Origin: a virus
Length of the DNA: 29,865 nt
Strand: one strand, 5' to 3'
Virus record (IMG/VR): IMGVR_UViG_3300021958_000018
Location: 1 to 29,865 of that record
Under the pieces are notes generated by a model. That model did no database searches and was not told where the DNA came from. It saw only the letters and a list, made by a program, of their open reading frames with translations. Shown here piece by piece: positions 4,591-13,053 of this stretch (position 1 is its first letter; each line of letters starts with the position of its first letter). The position numbers were made by a program, and so were the translations under genes.

Positions 4591-5025
4591 TCACTCTTCG
4601 TCGAGGTCTATGATCGGCGGCGCTATCTGTGCCATGCTCTGACTGACTTGCTCTGCTTCTTGTAGTAGTTGTGTAACGCTCATATTCTCAGGCGTGATTG
4701 CAATCTGTACTTGTGGCTCATCACGTTGCCCCCAGCCGCTCTTTTTCTCAAGCCACCACTGAGCAGCGCGCACGTCTCCCTCTTTCACTGCTCTGTGTAC
4801 GATTCCCATTGCCATAATGTCAGGACGTGCCTCAGCCTGTCGAAATTCCAAAACAAAATCATGATAGATCCCCTTGTTCGCTTGCTCGCCTCGTTTGATC
4901 CAGTTCATAAGCGTGACTAAAGTTATCCCTGCATGTTTGGCGGCTAGAGACTTCGAACCACCCACAGAGATCACTTGCAAGACTTCGCGCCGTGCTTTGT
5001 CAGTCAGTTTGCTTTTCCTGCCCAT
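4591..5025 (-). CDS. HTH protein resembling terminase small subunits (144 aa).
   Basis: The N-terminal GRKSKLTDKARREVLQVISVGGSKSLAAKHAGITLVTLMNWIKRG and a later AAQWWLEKK pattern resemble TerS-type proteins as I recall them. The gene is not adjacent to terL. Confidence 0.5.
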   Translation of the reverse strand: MGRKSKLTDKARREVLQVISVGGSKSLAAKHAGITLVTLMNWIKRGEQANKGIYHDFVLEFRQAEARPDIMAMGIVHRAVKEGDVRAAQWWLEKKSGWGQRDEPQVQIAITPENMSVTQLLQEAEQVSQSMAQIAPPIIDLDEE

Positions 5026-6667
5026 TGAGCACCTCTTGTATTCTTTCTGCTTTTGCCCAGTTCACACGCCCCTGTATGATTGGATAATAGTCTTCAGTCA
5101 TCTCACAACCTACAGCATTGAAGCCCTCAAGGATTGCACTTACAGCCGTTGTGCCACTGCCTAGAAACGGATCGAGCACTGTGCCGCCTTGTGGAGTCAG
5201 CAAGCGACAAAGCCAGCGCATTAACTTGATCGGCTTTACAGTTGGATGAAAGTTTTTAACGTGTTCAGCAGTGCGACCTGCGCCCGCTCTTGGGGATTTC
5301 AAGCCGTCCGATCCCTCTTTGCGTTGTGTTGCTTCTGCGCCTGTCTTGCCTGTCAAATGATCAAGCCCTGCCTCTTTCTCTGATCGTTGTGGCTTCTTGC
5401 ATTGATAGACGTTTGCAGGCCAGCGCCCATGCTTTGGATCATAAAAATATTCGTTTCTTAATGTTCCATCAGAAAAGCCCGAGACTGCATGCCCTCGACT
5501 TTGACTCGCTGATTTCTGCTCCGCTTTCAACTCGCTAGTATCTCCAAAATGACACTCATCCCCATAAGCAAAACGACCAGCATCTATATTGATCCCACCT
5601 GTACCCCATTTCAAGACATTCTCTGCAATACTTGAGCAGTCAGAATCTATTGGCTTTCTTGCAAGCACTGCGGGCTCTTGTGCTGGCTTGAGTGCAGTGC
5701 CCCAGCCTTGCCATTGTTGCGCTTGTGGGCTTGCGGGTGTTATTATATTGAAATCACCTGCATAAGTGCCAAAGACATTTTCTCCAATCTTGCCGCGATC
5801 TTTGCCGATCACTTTACGCTGATCAGATACTCCCAACTTTGAATCAATCGCTTTTGATATATCCAAACTTTTCGGAAATCCGCTTGTATATATCCAACTG
5901 ATCATGTCTCGAACTTCAAAGCCCGCTTCAGCAATAGCAACGCCCATCGGAAAGACAGTGCGAGATCCTGAAAATGCTACAAGATGCCCCCCGTGCTTCA
6001 ATACTCGCAAGCACTCTGACCACAGTTCGACAGAATACGCTATCCCTGTACTATCCCATGACTTGCCCATGAATCCGAGTTCATAGGGTGGATCGGTTAC
6101 GATTGAGTCTATGCTGTTGTCGGGTAACTCTTTCAGCATGTCGAGGCAGTTGCCCTTTAACAATCTGAAATCTAGATCAGATTCTACGTGCGGCGGTTCG
6201 ATTGCGTCTTGTGGCTCTCCGTCTCCAAATGGATTATCATCGTCTAGCCCGTCGAGCAGATCGTCAAGTTCGTGCTCTTCAAATCCTAGCACGCTCAAAT
6301 CTTCGCCTTGTTCTTTCAATCCAGTAAGAAGTTGAGACAGTTGATCAGTATTCCAGTCGGCTTTTTCTCCCAGTTTGTTATCGGCAATCATGAGCAACTC
6401 AGCATCCACAGGCGATAAATCAACATAGACAACGGGCACAGTTTCAAGCCCAATCTTTTGCGCTGCTTTGAATCTCGTATGACCTGCAAGGATCGTCCCG
6501 TCCTTATTGGCAATGATCGGGCTAGTGAATCCGAATCTTTTGATACTGTTCGCAATGCCATCAACTGCATGATCGTTGTGTCTTGGATTCTTGTGGTGAG
6601 GATGCAACTTGCCGATCCGCACAAACTCGCCCACTTTCTGCTCTTCTGTTGCTTCTTTGTCTGTCAT
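5000..6667 (-). CDS. ParB-like N-terminal domain fused to a beta-class N6-adenine/N4-cytosine DNA methyltransferase (555 aa).
   Basis: ParB-type KNPRHNDHAVDGIANSIKRFGFTSPII...GHTRFKAA. Catalytic SIVTDPPYE (DPPY). C-terminal AdoMet motif VLDPFLGSGTT. Confidence 0.9.
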   Translation of the reverse strand: MTDKEATEEQKVGEFVRIGKLHPHHKNPRHNDHAVDGIANSIKRFGFTSPIIANKDGTILAGHTRFKAAQKIGLETVPVVYVDLSPVDAELLMIADNKLGEKADWNTDQLSQLLTGLKEQGEDLSVLGFEEHELDDLLDGLDDDNPFGDGEPQDAIEPPHVESDLDFRLLKGNCLDMLKELPDNSIDSIVTDPPYELGFMGKSWDSTGIAYSVELWSECLRVLKHGGHLVAFSGSRTVFPMGVAIAEAGFEVRDMISWIYTSGFPKSLDISKAIDSKLGVSDQRKVIGKDRGKIGENVFGTYAGDFNIITPASPQAQQWQGWGTALKPAQEPAVLARKPIDSDCSSIAENVLKWGTGGINIDAGRFAYGDECHFGDTSELKAEQKSASQSRGHAVSGFSDGTLRNEYFYDPKHGRWPANVYQCKKPQRSEKEAGLDHLTGKTGAEATQRKEGSDGLKSPRAGAGRTAEHVKNFHPTVKPIKLMRWLCRLLTPQGGTVLDPFLGSGTTAVSAILEGFNAVGCEMTEDYYPIIQGRVNWAKAERIQEVLNGQEKQTD

Positions 6668-6861
6668 TTTCTGATTCCCTTGTATTCTTTCTTGATTGCA
6701 TCCCTGACTATTCTGCTTTTGCTCTTGCCTGTATATTCGTGTATTGTCTTGAGTTGCTTGATGCTCTCAGGTGTCATTGATAGGCAGACGTTTTTTGCTT
6801 TGACTGTAGCGCCGTGACAATCACACGGATCGCACTCACAGGCTGGACAAGGCTTGCTCAT
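6664..6861 (-). CDS. Ribbon-helix-helix (CopG-like) protein with an N-terminal Cys cluster (65 aa).
   Basis: LSMTPESIKQLKTIHEYTGKSKSRIVRDAIKKEY fits a strand-helix-helix pattern. The N-terminus reads CPACECDPCDCH. ATGA overlaps at both ends. Confidence 0.6.
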   Translation of the reverse strand: MSKPCPACECDPCDCHGATVKAKNVCLSMTPESIKQLKTIHEYTGKSKSRIVRDAIKKEYKGIRK

Positions 6862-7109
6862 TTTGTCACCAAGTACAAACGATCGGCAATATGTCGAGCG
6901 ATCACTTTCTGACAGTATACGGCGGGATCTTCGTTGTGGGCTACGGTTGCCAAGATGCTGATCTGTTGCATTTGTACTGGGGTGAGTTTGATGCTCAGTA
7001 GGTTGTCATTGTTTATGTGCTCAAGAGGCTCAAATCGCTCTGCTGTGGCTTCTTTTGTGCTCTCTCTGTCTGTCTTACTGATTTCTTTTGTTTTCTTCTT
7101 AGGTGGCAT
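6858..7109 (-). CDS. Probable ribbon-helix-helix protein with a basic N-terminal tail (83 aa).
   Basis: LSIKLTPVQMQQISILATVAHNEDPAVYCQKVIARHI has an RHH-like pattern. Confidence 0.5.
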   Translation of the reverse strand: MPPKKKTKEISKTDRESTKEATAERFEPLEHINNDNLLSIKLTPVQMQQISILATVAHNEDPAVYCQKVIARHIADRLYLVTK

Positions 7110-7151: not shown

Positions 7152-7180
7152 ACTATATAGAACTATTGTATCACTGTCAA
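7152..7180 (-). promoter_or_regulatory. Sigma70-type promoter for the RHH-RHH-methyltransferase-TerS-like operon.
   Basis: Minus strand reads TTGACA (7180..7175)-N17-TATAGT (7157..7152). The palindrome begins immediately downstream of the -10. Confidence 0.6.
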
Positions 7181-7992
7181 TCTATCAGATCGTCAATCAA
7201 TCCACTCTGTACAATCTTACGCCCTATCCATTCAGAGGCTTGCGGTACTATGGCATTTCCTAGTGCTTTCAATCGCTCTTTTCTGATTCTGTTGTGCTGG
7301 GTGCTGTCCATCCCTGTGGGAATCCCATCATCCACTCGACAAATCGCGGATTCAACACCAATCCCTCTCCAATCGCCTGCTCTTTTTCTATTCCATAGTG
7401 TTGGCATGCTTTGACGCCCACGCACATTCTCATATCTTTTATCTCCTCTCTCCTCCATTGACTCAGATACTTTGGTTCGCTTCCCGGCAGTCGCGCTGTT
7501 GGGGTAGGCAACACAAAACCAGCGCGCTCTGTGGTGCGGTGCTCCGAAATCTGATCCACTGCGTACAACTGTCCATTCACAATCATACCCGATTTCGGCA
7601 AGCGATCCAACAACATCGCATCCGCCCACTGAAAGGACATTTGCAACATTTTCCAAGCATACAATTCTTGGTCGAAGTTGGCTAATAATTCGGTGCATTT
7701 CCCACCAAAGACTCGATTTTTCACTGTCATGTATTCCCCTTTGTTTTCCTGCTACTGATATGTCTTGGCAAGGGAATCCCCCACACAAGAGATCGATTGG
7801 TTGTAGGTTGTGAGCGCCGACTGTACACACATCATCGAAGATCGTTGCCTCAGGCCAGTGCTTTTTCAAGATGCTTTGACAAAATGTATTCTGTTCAACT
7901 TGCCAAATTGCCTTACTGTTTGGAATGGCGCGCGAAAGCCCTAACTCGAACCCGCCGATCCCTGCGAAAAGTGATCCAATTTTTACTGTCAT
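7177..7992 (-). CDS. DNA (cytosine-5)-methyltransferase, short form (271 aa).
   Basis: Ordered motifs: I LFAGIGGF, IV GGFPCQDIS, VI CLENV, VIII GAPHHRARWF, X LGNAIVPQ. Confidence 0.85.
   Translation of the reverse strand: MTVKIGSLFAGIGGFELGLSRAIPNSKAIWQVEQNTFCQSILKKHWPEATIFDDVCTVGAHNLQPIDLLCGGFPCQDISVAGKQRGIHDSEKSSLWWEMHRIISQLRPRIVCLENVANVLSVGGCDVVGSLAEIGYDCEWTVVRSGSDFGAPHHRARWFCVAYPNSATAGKRTKVSESMEERGDKRYENVRGRQSMPTLWNRKRAGDWRGIGVESAICRVDDGIPTGMDSTQHNRIRKERLKALGNAIVPQASEWIGRKIVQSGLIDDLID
7269..7730 (-). CDS. Nested same-strand ORF in a shifted frame inside the C5-methyltransferase gene (153 codons). Coding status unresolved.
   Basis: The ORF is open for 153 codons. Its ATG is preceded by AAAGGGGA. 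The translation contains LPKSGMIVNGQLY, LPTPTA and LNPRFVEWMMGFPQGWT. Confidence 0.3.
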   Translation of the reverse strand: MTVKNRVFGGKCTELLANFDQELYAWKMLQMSFQWADAMLLDRLPKSGMIVNGQLYAVDQISEHRTTERAGFVLPTPTARLPGSEPKYLSQWRREEIKDMRMCVGVKACQHYGIEKEQAIGEGLVLNPRFVEWMMGFPQGWTAPSTTESEKSD

Positions 7993-8852
7993 TTTTTACG
8001 AATCCCCATCGCCTCGCTCAAAGATTGCGGCGGTACATAGTTGATCCCATGATCGTCAATCTTTGCTCTGAGCCGTCGATCTTTGCTTTTGCGTTGATCT
8101 GCTTTGTCACCTCGAAGCCGTGCACGCGTGTTCTCGTATTCGTCTTTGATGTGTGGAGGCATCTTGAATCCATAACGGTCGCAAGTCCATTGCCCGAATA
8201 CACTCGTATATATTGGATGATCCCAGCAAGGGGCGATCTGTCCGTCTTCGTCTATTTGGATGATCTGATCGTCGATCTTCTTTTGCCAGTGGTGTTGACT
8301 TTGCTCCTGAGCAGGCACAATGCGATCTGTATTTGCGTCATAGAATGAAACGTGAATTTCTGCAAAATTGTCTTGTTTGCGCATCCACTCAACGATCTCT
8401 GTATAGGGTGCATGAGTGCTCTTTGCTGCCAGTTCACAATCACACGATCCTTTGTAGTGCGCTTCGGCTTTTTTCTGCAATGATTGACGGAAGCCGTAAA
8501 AGTAAATCTCTCGGAAGCCGCCCTCTTTGCCCTCTTCGTCTGTTCGACAGTGCTGGCAGTAGGTTTCATTGATCGGGATTGTGTGCCAGTGCGTTTTGAA
8601 ATCGTTGCGCTGGGTTGTCATATAGTGAACGATCTGCTTGATAGTTGGCAGCCATTCGAGCTCATTGATCAAGTAGTCTTGAAATGCTTGCTTGAGATAG
8701 TTCTCAGGTACGTTGCGGAACTTCTTTGCGTAGAGTCCGTATTGCCCTTTGATCCAAAAGTGATTGCGCTTGAAGTGATCGGCTAGGTTTGAGAGGAATC
8801 GAAAAATGATCTGTCCTCTGTAACTGGTGACATAGTCAGGGAAGTTTGTCAT
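7989..8852 (-). CDS. Hypothetical protein with Cys clusters (287 aa). A replication-associated role is only a guess.
   Basis: CQHCR and CDCE clusters, and a basic C-terminus. The RBS aacaacggagcaaatagcc precedes the ATG. ATGA overlap with the methyltransferase start. Confidence 0.7.
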   Translation of the reverse strand: MTNFPDYVTSYRGQIIFRFLSNLADHFKRNHFWIKGQYGLYAKKFRNVPENYLKQAFQDYLINELEWLPTIKQIVHYMTTQRNDFKTHWHTIPINETYCQHCRTDEEGKEGGFREIYFYGFRQSLQKKAEAHYKGSCDCELAAKSTHAPYTEIVEWMRKQDNFAEIHVSFYDANTDRIVPAQEQSQHHWQKKIDDQIIQIDEDGQIAPCWDHPIYTSVFGQWTCDRYGFKMPPHIKDEYENTRARLRGDKADQRKSKDRRLRAKIDDHGINYVPPQSLSEAMGIRKK

Positions 8853-11598: not shown

Positions 11599-13053
11599 TT
11601 ATGCAGGATTGTTCACAAGAGCGCGGACACATACGCGATCGCCGTTGTCCAAGTTTGCGCCAAATACAACGCGTCCAACATCGCCCACGCCGCCATTGTC
11701 AAACGTGTAATTGTCTTTTGCGTCAGGTGTTGCTTTGTATTCAACTACAAGACCATTCACTGTAACTACAAAAGACTCAGCAAGATCAAGATCAAGACCG
11801 CCCTGCAAAGAAAATGCTAGAGTTGAGCCATCAGCATCGAAAGCACTGAAAATGCCGACAATGTCAAGTTTTTCAGTAGTTACTGAATCGTCTGAAATTT
11901 TTGCGGTTGTGATTGCATTGTCCAACAATTTTGATCCAGCAATAGATCCAGCAAGTTGCGCATTTGTGATCGTTCCTACAAGGCTAGAAGTAGGATAGTT
12001 TGTAGCGTCTGACAAGTCAAATGCTGGAGTGGCATCACTGCCACCGAGAGACAAAGACACGCCACCGAATGAAACGGAAGAATTTGCAAGTTTTGCATTT
12101 GTCACAACTGAGTCGGCAATCTTTGCAGAAGCATCGATCGCACCGTCAGCGATCTCTGTTGCGGTTACTCCGTCTTCAGCGATAGACAAGCCGCCTGCGC
12201 CAAGTGCCAAGGCAGATCCGTCAAGATTTATTGCTAATCCGTCAACATTAACAATAAGCCCTGAATCAGTATCAAGATCGATCGTCAAGTCAGAAACAGC
12301 AGCAGAGCCGTTGAAACTGGTCATTGAGATACCATTGCCAGCGCTCAAAGAGTTGAGATTGCTACCCAAAGACACGCCTGAGATCGTGCTGTTTGACAAT
12401 TTTGCATTTGCGATTGAGCCAGCAAGCATTGCATTTGTAACGCCAGCAGCATCGATCTTCAAGCCTGAAGCAGATACAGCCAAGCCTGAAGCAGTATCAA
12501 GATCGACAGATACAGTTGAGCCTGCGATATCGATACCGTTGCCGCCGTCCAACTGTCCAGCACCTGTGAACTGTACGAAAAGAACATTGTCAGTGCCGAT
12601 CGTTACGTCACCATCGTTTGAGCATACATAACCAGTATCGGCGTTTGCAGTTCCCTCTTGTACGAATACAGCAGCGCCCGAAAACTCGTCTGATTCGTTC
12701 ATATCAGCGGCACGCTCCCAAGAGCCAGCCTTGCACAAGTAAATGCCGTTTTCTGTTTGGTCAGTTTGCGACTTGACCAATACACGATCATCAGCAACAA
12801 CTGCGATCCCGTCGATCGTCTGAGTGCCTGACAGTGTGATATTGCCAGTAGTAGCAACGCGAACTGAATCTTTCCAGTGCAATCCCTGAGCAATAGAATC
12901 GACGTATGTTTTTGTAGCAGCGTCCGATCCGTTCGATGGGGCGGCAACTTGAAGCACTGCGCTTGTAAAGTCAAAAGTTCCAGTCGATAAATCTAATTTG
13001 TTGACGTCTACTGCCGCATCTGCGATCTGACGTCCCGTAATTTGTACAGCCAT
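11599..13053 (-). CDS. Tail fibre protein (484 aa).
   Basis: Repeated VTNAxLAGSIAxxKL-type units, an Ala/Ser/Gly-rich composition, and its position at the end of the tail module. Confidence 0.75.
   Translation of the reverse strand: MAVQITGRQIADAAVDVNKLDLSTGTFDFTSAVLQVAAPSNGSDAATKTYVDSIAQGLHWKDSVRVATTGNITLSGTQTIDGIAVVADDRVLVKSQTDQTENGIYLCKAGSWERAADMNESDEFSGAAVFVQEGTANADTGYVCSNDGDVTIGTDNVLFVQFTGAGQLDGGNGIDIAGSTVSVDLDTASGLAVSASGLKIDAAGVTNAMLAGSIANAKLSNSTISGVSLGSNLNSLSAGNGISMTSFNGSAAVSDLTIDLDTDSGLIVNVDGLAINLDGSALALGAGGLSIAEDGVTATEIADGAIDASAKIADSVVTNAKLANSSVSFGGVSLSLGGSDATPAFDLSDATNYPTSSLVGTITNAQLAGSIAGSKLLDNAITTAKISDDSVTTEKLDIVGIFSAFDADGSTLAFSLQGGLDLDLAESFVVTVNGLVVEYKATPDAKDNYTFDNGGVGDVGRVVFGANLDNGDRVCVRALVNNPA

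Follow-up and report, generated by a model that had tools for sequence, protein, structure and literature searches.

The stretch of DNA analysed here (IMG/VR virus record IMGVR_UViG_3300021958_000018, 29,865 nucleotides, hereafter the window) is essentially the whole contig of a phage of ~29.9 kb, with terminase, portal, head and tail genes. Its minus strand carries a gene for a C5-cytosine DNA methyltransferase, termed alpha (frame A), and a second open reading frame (ORF), termed beta (frame B), which is read from the same bases in another frame. The locus probably encodes a two-chain alpha/beta C5-cytosine DNA methyltransferase, with the beta gene nested in the other frame of alpha. Nesting of this kind is known from the Escherichia coli enzyme M.EcoHK31I; added here are the size that the family reaches, evidence that the bases are dual-coding, and the gap in annotation. 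The M.EcoHK31I-like arrangement is very widespread and almost never annotated.

Both ORFs, their motifs, the ATG of beta, the sequence preceding it and the +1 readings of the alpha motifs were all found as given in a preliminary description of this DNA, on the minus strand, which had been left unstated (Table 1). The two start positions are 262 nucleotides apart (7992-7730 = 262 = 1 mod 3), so that frame B lies one nucleotide downstream of frame A. The beta ORF is located wholly inside the alpha ORF, on the same strand but in a different frame, as in M.EcoHK31I. Same-type relatives (L002, L012, L017 and L034) also have a purine-rich counterpart of the Shine-Dalgarno-like sequence upstream of their beta start. 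The two start regions read ATGACAGTAAAAATT and ATGACAGTGAAAAAT. Their near-identical first 8 nucleotides and the MTVK with which both products begin were considered as a signal of duplication and judged to be a coincidence; the beta proteins of relatives begin with MEKN, MKTS or MAKN.

The alpha protein matched Pfam family PF00145 with E=4e-43 and 148 bits (cutoff 22), though only over aa 4-173, as well as TIGR00675 (dcm) with E=2e-36 and 126 bits (cutoff 100.65), and it was matched end to end by phrog_363 (E=3e-70). Motifs I, IV, VI and VIII follow one another in the chain and motif X (GNxV) stands at its C-terminus, as in C5-methyltransferases. An AlphaFold2 (AF2) model, based on 61 homologues, was confident at residues 1-168 and ~230-263 and superposed on the large domain of M.HhaI over ~170 columns (E=4e-14), whereas residues 169-221 had predicted local distance difference test (pLDDT) values below 50. 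In alignments of homologues, the part between motif VIII and 'RVDDGIP' was hypervariable and rich in gaps. Neither a folded target-recognition domain nor motif IX was found between motifs VIII and X of the alpha chain, be it in the AF2 model, the alignments or the motif reading. As predicted from these data, alpha is a C5-methyltransferase catalytic core with motif X that contains no folded recognition insert and no motif IX. Since residues 169-221 show both low pLDDT and hypervariability and motif IX is read in frame B, alpha alone would be an incomplete C5-methyltransferase.

Beta, in turn, ends in C5-methyltransferase motif IX, the motif that alpha lacks. In a natural variant (L088) with motifs IX and X in one frame, this region was aligned without gaps to residues 270-318 of M.HhaI (KTRKLHPRECARVMGYPDSY...GNSVV; 6 bits). 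When a beta profile was compared with the C-terminal half of M.HhaI using hhalign, motif IX was the sole matching segment (probability 3.6%); the M.HhaI sequence used for this purpose agrees with the portions shown in the L088 alignment. The two alignments agree with each other and are correctly placed, each being weak alone. A peptide in which motifs IX and X were joined by hand gave no match against PDB, being too short. With beta motif IX joined to alpha motif X, the spacing from GFP to GNA is 22 residues, as compared with 19 in M.HhaI and L088. The division of the motifs, with I-VIII and X in alpha and IX in beta, corresponds to that of M.EcoHK31I, on alignments that are weak singly.

Purifying selection acts on both frames over the same bases. 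In the window gene, the +1 frame contained no stop codon over the beta region, where 5.5 were predicted by synonymous shuffling of frame A, and the +2 frame contained 11. Over 88 loci (17,553 codons), the +1 frame had 0 stops as compared with ~429 expected, a zero that arises partly by construction because the regions counted were delimited inside open segments, and the +2 frame had 910 as compared with 875 expected. The +1 frame was open over nearly the whole B profile in 85 of the 88 loci (~3 expected by chance). Against a profile made from 72 relatives judged distant by their top BLAST high-scoring segment pair, the B protein of the window scored 133 bits, whereas recodings synonymous in A scored 52 +/- 11 bits (maximum 78 in 300 trials), which places the observed score ~7 standard deviations above them. 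The reverse held for the overlapped part of A, with 131 bits versus 51 +/- 11 bits for recodings synonymous in B. Broken down by region, alpha-synonymous recoding cost beta 47 bits over alpha motifs V-VIII (observed score reached in 0 of 200 recodings), 37 bits over motif IX and nothing in the variable middle.

Synonymous third-position differences in frame A were compared between the window and its syntenic relatives L092-L095 (five loci). They amounted to 0.37 in the N-terminal and 0.32 in the C-terminal flank, both outside the overlap, and dropped within it to 0.21 over motifs V-VIII, 0.06 in the middle and 0.09 over motif IX. In the middle segment (alpha residues 173-212), amino-acid divergence was 0.66 for alpha versus 0.40 for beta. 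The constrained frame is A upstream, B in the middle and both at motif IX/'RVDDGIP'. Both frames survive the insertions and deletions in the middle segment, which can be as large as whole PTPTA modules, frame A shows 0 stops versus 145 expected in the linker (55 loci), and the arrangement persists from marine phages of 47% GC to a high-GC prophage-like contig.

Frame B could instead be an untranslated by-product of the conserved motifs of alpha, or a decaying relic of a frameshift; the amino acids of alpha alone indeed force ~40-50 bits of similarity to beta, and other long alternative-frame ORFs in this genome had been pointed out at the outset. This explanation is, however, extremely improbable, given the distance of the observed score from the recodings, the excess of open loci over chance, a middle segment in which beta is more conserved than alpha and the synonymous sites of alpha are nearly frozen, the indels that keep both frames, and the range of base compositions over which the arrangement is kept. 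Among the options considered in the preliminary description, chance was rejected on the basis of the recoding scores and the open loci, and that of an overprinted gene gained support from the open +1 frame in relatives, the recoding tests and the synonymous suppression.

The pairing of the two frames holds in almost every relative examined. For a sample unbiased toward B, loci were fetched with frame A only, and the best 80 viral loci (33-56% identity to frame A) were inspected: all 80 had a match to the B profile in the +1 frame (E 1e-11 to 1e-67), and in 77 a single B ORF ran uninterrupted over most of the profile. The remaining three were L084, with B split by one stop, L087, with a short B of 111 aa, and L088, with motif IX in frame with A. 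For a sample unbiased toward A, species-representative genomes were scanned with degenerate DNA of EWMMGFP; in 91 of the 94 cellular loci having a match to the B profile, B was read +1 relative to an A-like ORF. By record title, these loci come from, among others, Saccharibacteria, Clostridia, Bacillus and relatives, Bacteroidota, actinobacterial/acidobacterial lineages, Proteobacteria, cyanobacteria and one archaeal metagenome-assembled genome (MAG). B was likewise the +1 ORF in a full A-type gene on both a marine phage-like contig (L001) and the high-GC prophage-like contig (L004). Searching GenBank phages for B by tblastn yielded 18 records, with hosts including Sulfitobacter, Microbacterium, Porphyromonas, Nodularia, Microcystis and Acinetobacter; in five phages with an annotated methyltransferase coding sequence that were inspected, the B match was offset by 1 mod 3 from that coding sequence and the B ORF was unannotated. 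Plasmids of Leptospira, Nostoc, Bacillus and Acinetobacter also matched B under the name 'DNA cytosine methyltransferase', a result that concerns the match only and not the frame.

A few loci depart from the common layout. In L088 (1498-2547, 1805-2338), the +1 ORF retains just the PTPTA part. L167 and L187 (minus-strand segments 1597-2295 and 4616-5302, reverse-complement numbering) have beta-like sequence in frame with the N-terminal part of alpha, and L161 has it in the +2 frame. Together with L084 and L087, these variants could be evolutionary intermediates, pseudogenes or assembly errors.

As a protein, beta matched phrog_1008 ('DNA methyltransferase') with E=2e-16 and gave no Pfam or NCBIfam match in profile scans. 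A word-indexed search retrieved 69 proteins of 104-259 aa with 29-100% identity, most of them covering 90-100% of B and none with a Pfam domain. A profile of diverse members found 783 further proteins, and an exhaustive search of 1.84 billion cluster representatives with a beta hidden Markov model returned 32,976 at E<=1e-3 and 16,091 at E<=1e-10; no Pfam domain was present among 10 long beta representatives. The B proteins of other loci span positions 27-282 of phrog_1008, which is therefore the beta family. In most relatives, an in-frame start codon precedes the beta-profile match. The modules LP.SG..NG and LPTP are near-invariant in the alignment (L74, P75, T76 and P77 in the latter), PTP(TA) modules occur in 0-4 copies per relative, and the tail past GWT ranges from 2 to ~14 residues.

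Three of the checks proposed in the preliminary description, namely homology searches with both translations, an open frame B in homologues and synonymous suppression of frame A within the overlap, all turned out in favour of two coding frames, with PF00145 and phrog_363 found for A, phrog_1008 and the 69 homologues for B, an uninterrupted frame B in 77 of the 80 viral loci and third-position differences of 0.06-0.21 inside versus 0.32-0.37 outside the overlap. Its assignment of the B motifs to the C-terminal half of phage C5-methyltransferases from another subgroup was not sustained: PF00145 was absent from every B-like protein checked, and those whose loci were examined proved to be the same hidden +1 ORF. 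A monomeric 'long-type' methyltransferase subgroup was dropped as a candidate, as neither the 120 best profile matches nor the 10 long representatives included a protein with beta-like sequence fused in frame to PF00145.

Searches for structural relatives of beta were unproductive. The beta profile gave chance matches only against PDB sequences (glycolipid transfer protein, E ~0.01), and the AF2 model of beta alone had low confidence (pLDDT 60, N-terminal half unstructured), speaking neither for nor against a small-domain fold, and gave no match in Foldseek. Together with the lack of a Pfam or NCBIfam family for beta, this failure of structure searches to link it to alpha would be compatible with a real overprinted protein that acts outside the methyltransferase, e.g. 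an independent anti-defence or regulatory protein. We consider such a role unlikely because beta carries the sole canonical C5-methyltransferase motif that alpha lacks, positioned just ahead of motif X of alpha, and because beta-like proteins, devoid of Pfam domains in those checked, were found only overlapping alpha-like genes. In addition, L088 provides a natural variant with motif IX in frame with alpha, and the precedent of M.EcoHK31I agrees. To judge from its sequence, beta is most likely the missing DNA-recognition subunit of the same enzyme.

Relatives of beta (e.g. P0044, P0049, L001 4001-4528, L012 and L016) vary by whole modules, for instance SDPDKHSTGGLHRLIVKGAKYSAGDH followed by another LPTPTA, and their lengths range from 133 to 350 aa, with all module insertions keeping both frames. 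Multispecific phage methyltransferases, with recognition domains in tandem, show a similar pattern. In L004, L006, L023, L024, L037 and others, the beta start lies ~25-60 codons further upstream, with an ATG from the conserved [Y/H]-D-D codons of alpha. Betas starting upstream read GGFPCQDIS of alpha as 'SPAR/KTSA'; that of the window starts later, past the PCQ motif.

A different way of using the same two frames would be the synthesis of a single chain through two programmed frameshifts, with frame A being translated up to motif VIII, a +1 shift leading into B for recognition and motif IX and a -1 shift leading back for motif X. The preliminary description had proposed compensating frameshifts that join EWMMGFPQGWT to LKALGNAIVPQ, either as a relic or as a mode of decoding. 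The two segments do belong beside each other because they are motifs IX and X, and their junction restores the canonical order with near-canonical spacing (22 versus 19 residues); moreover, the rare variants L088, L167 and L187 have parts of both frames fused. Decoding by frameshifting is nevertheless disfavoured, because beta has its own start and a selected N-terminal half and because frame A is kept open in the linker. The N-terminal half of beta, located upstream of any shift point, is under selection (47 bits; 0.21 versus 0.32-0.37), the start codon of the window's beta follows a purine-rich Shine-Dalgarno-like stretch, and the linker, free of stops in frame A, would never be translated in this model. 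LPTPTA overlaps the motif VIII strand WFCVAY, so that a shift placed far enough upstream to take in LPTPTA would cost the enzyme this strand. No slippery heptamer, the mark of a programmed frameshift, was seen by eye (no formal search for frameshift signals was made), the beta tail past GWT is variable in length and M.EcoHK31I consists biochemically of two chains (PMC2836561). We thus regard frameshift decoding as very unlikely. As history only, compensating frameshifts are plausible: the pair may have originated from a monomeric ancestor by paired frameshifts, and the boundaries between the frames are movable, as seen in L088, L167, L187 and L161.

In the two-chain enzyme proposed here, alpha would supply the large domain for S-adenosylmethionine (AdoMet) binding and catalysis (motifs I-VIII) and the C-terminal motif-X helix, the two being connected by a putatively unstructured linker of ~50 residues whose sequence is dictated by the other frame. 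Beta would be translated separately, using an ATG and a Shine-Dalgarno-like sequence of its own that lie within alpha, and contribute motif IX and, most likely, the small target-recognising domain (LPKSGM..NG..Y and LPTPTA modules). Both chains would then assemble into the active enzyme, which might methylate phage DNA as a protection against host restriction. The start codon of alpha overlaps the stop codon of an upstream 287-aa gene (7989..8852; ATGA, window 7989-7992), an overlap that suggests translational coupling.

M.EcoHK31I from E. coli HK31 (Lee, Kam and Shaw 1995; Fung et al. 2006) is composed of an alpha and a beta chain that must associate, with motifs I-VIII, X and a predicted recognition domain in alpha and motif IX in beta (PMC2836561, PMC3404938). 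Removal of the beta start by changes silent in alpha lowers its activity, internal Met codons can substitute for this start, and N-terminal residues of beta are progressively dispensable (PMC2836561, PMC3404938). The window locus is like it in being a putative two-polypeptide C5-methyltransferase with beta entirely inside alpha in another frame, as judged from architecture, and the variable beta starts seen here fit the dispensable N-terminus. Unlike M.EcoHK31I, which is a type II restriction-modification methylase (YGGCCR), the window gene resides in a ~30 kb phage and has no recognisable nuclease adjoining it. A blastn search with the window gene against 5,426 E. coli genomes gave no match. 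The connection to M.EcoHK31I was absent from the earlier account of this DNA, and no description of a wider family of M.EcoHK31I-type nested enzymes was found in the literature searched.

In M.AquI (Agmenellum quadruplicatum; Karreman and de Waard 1990), another natural two-subunit C5-methyltransferase that is split in the variable region, the small subunit carries motifs IX and X (PMC3404938). The window pair differs from this type in that motif X is on alpha and beta is fully nested. In the monomers M.HhaI and M.HaeIII (PDB 1MHT and 1DCT), the small domain with the recognition part and motif IX is inserted in frame between motifs VIII and X, whereas here it would be read in the other frame as a separate chain; the likeness to them lies in the superposition of alpha on the M.HhaI large domain and in the alignment of the beta C-terminus with M.HhaI motif IX. 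The Rz/Rz1 spanins of phage lambda are encoded by a gene pair in which one lies wholly in the +1 frame of the other, and their products form one complex. They are unrelated to the window pair in protein and function, and the Rz1 overlap covers no catalytic motifs conserved across phyla. The multispecific C5-methyltransferases of the Bacillus phages SPR, phi3T and rho11s are single polypeptides with tandem target-recognising modules. The 0-4 PTPTA copies in relatives of beta recall these tandem modules and may act as specificity units.

Several points weigh against the two-chain enzyme as proposed. Since ~40-50 bits of the beta profile score are forced by the alpha protein sequence alone, part of the conservation of the beta N-terminal half is a by-product, and the ranking of the loci, made by tblastn with full-length alpha, gives a slight advantage to intact alpha frames. 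The motif-IX alignments are weak when taken alone (6 bits; hhalign probability 3.6%), and the case for beta as the small domain rests on motif IX and elimination because its AF2 model is poor and the Foldseek search was empty. A kinship with M.EcoHK31I, suggested by shared architecture, is putative; in M.EcoHK31I the recognition domain has been placed in alpha, whereas here the spacer between motifs VIII and X of alpha is hypervariable and predicted to be disordered, and it is beta that holds the conserved modules. The two-chain enzyme of the window is a prediction from sequence and modelled structure.

If the pair is an enzyme of this kind, half an enzyme is probably all that the short phage 'DNA cytosine methyltransferases' in this clade represent, and specificity predictions, expression constructs and interpretations of methylomes that start from alpha alone would fail. 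The locus would also offer a deeply conserved case of two proteins from one sequence, including catalytic motifs, that is useful for studying how overlapping genes originate and persist, and specificity carried by beta in swappable modules would open a compact route to retarget a methyltransferase. On a wider scale, it is conceivable, though we put this forward tentatively and with less than even confidence, that nested beta is an ancient and obligatory part of the C5-methyltransferases in a very large phage and prophage clade, comprising at least 16,000 clusters (50% identity) in many bacterial phyla and some archaeal MAGs. Beta rather than alpha would then carry target recognition, in PTPTA units that can be duplicated or swapped, and several hundred bases including catalytic motifs VI-VIII would be dual-coding across phyla. 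Few known pairs of long overlapping genes on the same strand would then be as widespread as this one, which would be systematically overlooked or mis-called by annotation, and its probable origin would be a monomeric ancestor that underwent paired frameshifts followed by overprinting.

Table 1. Features of the alpha/beta locus and of a neighbouring gene (window coordinates)
Feature	Position	Strand	Remarks
alpha gene (frame A)	7177..7992	minus	271 aa; predicted C5-cytosine DNA methyltransferase large domain for catalysis, carrying motifs I-VIII as well as X
beta gene (frame B)	7269..7730	minus	153 aa; +1 relative to alpha; proposed small subunit with recognition-type modules and motif IX
beta start codon	ATG 7730-7728	minus	read directly from the sequence
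Shine-Dalgarno-like AAAGGGGA	7742-7735	minus	5 nt upstream of the beta ATG, within the K-Q-R-G codons of alpha; putative function
alpha motif I FAGIGGF	7948..7968	minus	AdoMet binding; near-invariant in homologue alignments
alpha motif IV GGFPCQDIS	7756..7782	minus	catalytic Cys75; P74, C75 and Q76 invariant
alpha motifs VI (CLENV) to VIII (GAPHHRARWF)	7516..7659	minus	same bases as the beta N-terminal half (WKMLQ...LPKSGMIVNGQLY...); dual-coding
alpha linker, residues 169-221	7330..7488	minus	between motifs VIII and X; predicted disordered, unconstrained; beta is the constrained frame
beta LPKSGMIVNGQLY	7563-7601	minus	+1 reading of alpha LAEIGYDCEW
beta LPTPTA module	7494..7511	minus	+1 reading of alpha CVAYPNSA; candidate target-recognition element
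beta motif IX LNPRFVEWMMGFPQGWT	7305..7355	minus	+1 reading of alpha VESAICRVDDGIPTGMD; overlaps alpha ...ICRVDDGIPTGMD; best conserved part of the overlap
beta stop codon	TGA 7271-7269	minus	three A-frame codons ahead of motif X
alpha motif X LGNAIVPQ	7240..7263 (alpha 244-251)	minus	starts just past the beta stop; G245 and N246 invariant in 61 homologues
ParB_N + N6_N4_Mtase fusion	5000..6667	minus	555 aa; unrelated second methyltransferase, two small genes downstream of alpha

The neighbouring ORFs 7989..8852, 6858..7109 and 6664..6861 gave no Pfam match, and the first of them also lacked a PHROG match. Scans of the neighbours revealed no recognisable nuclease partner beside alpha and beta, the nearest annotated gene being the ParB-N6/N4 methylase; a DEDDh exonuclease is encoded in the window. 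The same neighbours of alpha recur in the close relatives L092 and L095. A megablast search with 7 kb of the window against GenBank phages gave no match. Homologues of alpha (P0174-P0272) were located on contigs of 29.1-30.3 kb, some of them from Tara samples, which points to a group of uncultured phages whose genomes measure ~30 kb. Two long ORFs on the opposite strand, 7797-8348 (+, 183 aa) and 12029-12631 (+, 200 aa), face coding genes, and nothing points to their being genes.

Existing annotations are inconsistent. In the GenBank phage records MT584811, MW073100, BK068113, KU230356 and OQ471969, alpha only is annotated. Metagenome gene callers kept beta and left the alpha ends uncalled in L001 (3742-4608), L004 (3841-4863) and L094 (889-1692).

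A 20-nt stretch of the dual-coding motif-IX/'VDDGIP' region was also detected in spacers of clustered regularly interspaced short palindromic repeat (CRISPR) arrays. It occurs twice in L149 (4521-4540 and 4884-4903; Methanothrix sp. MAG OY762912.1), in an array whose 25 repeats have identical 34-nt cores (conservation extends to ~37 nt) at ~72-nt spacing and which includes two such spacers, and once in L115 (4725-4744; Acidimicrobiia MAG OZ242000.1), in an array of 13 repeats with a conserved core of 35 nt and ~72-nt spacing. Hosts appear to direct spacers against the best conserved portion of these methyltransferase genes.

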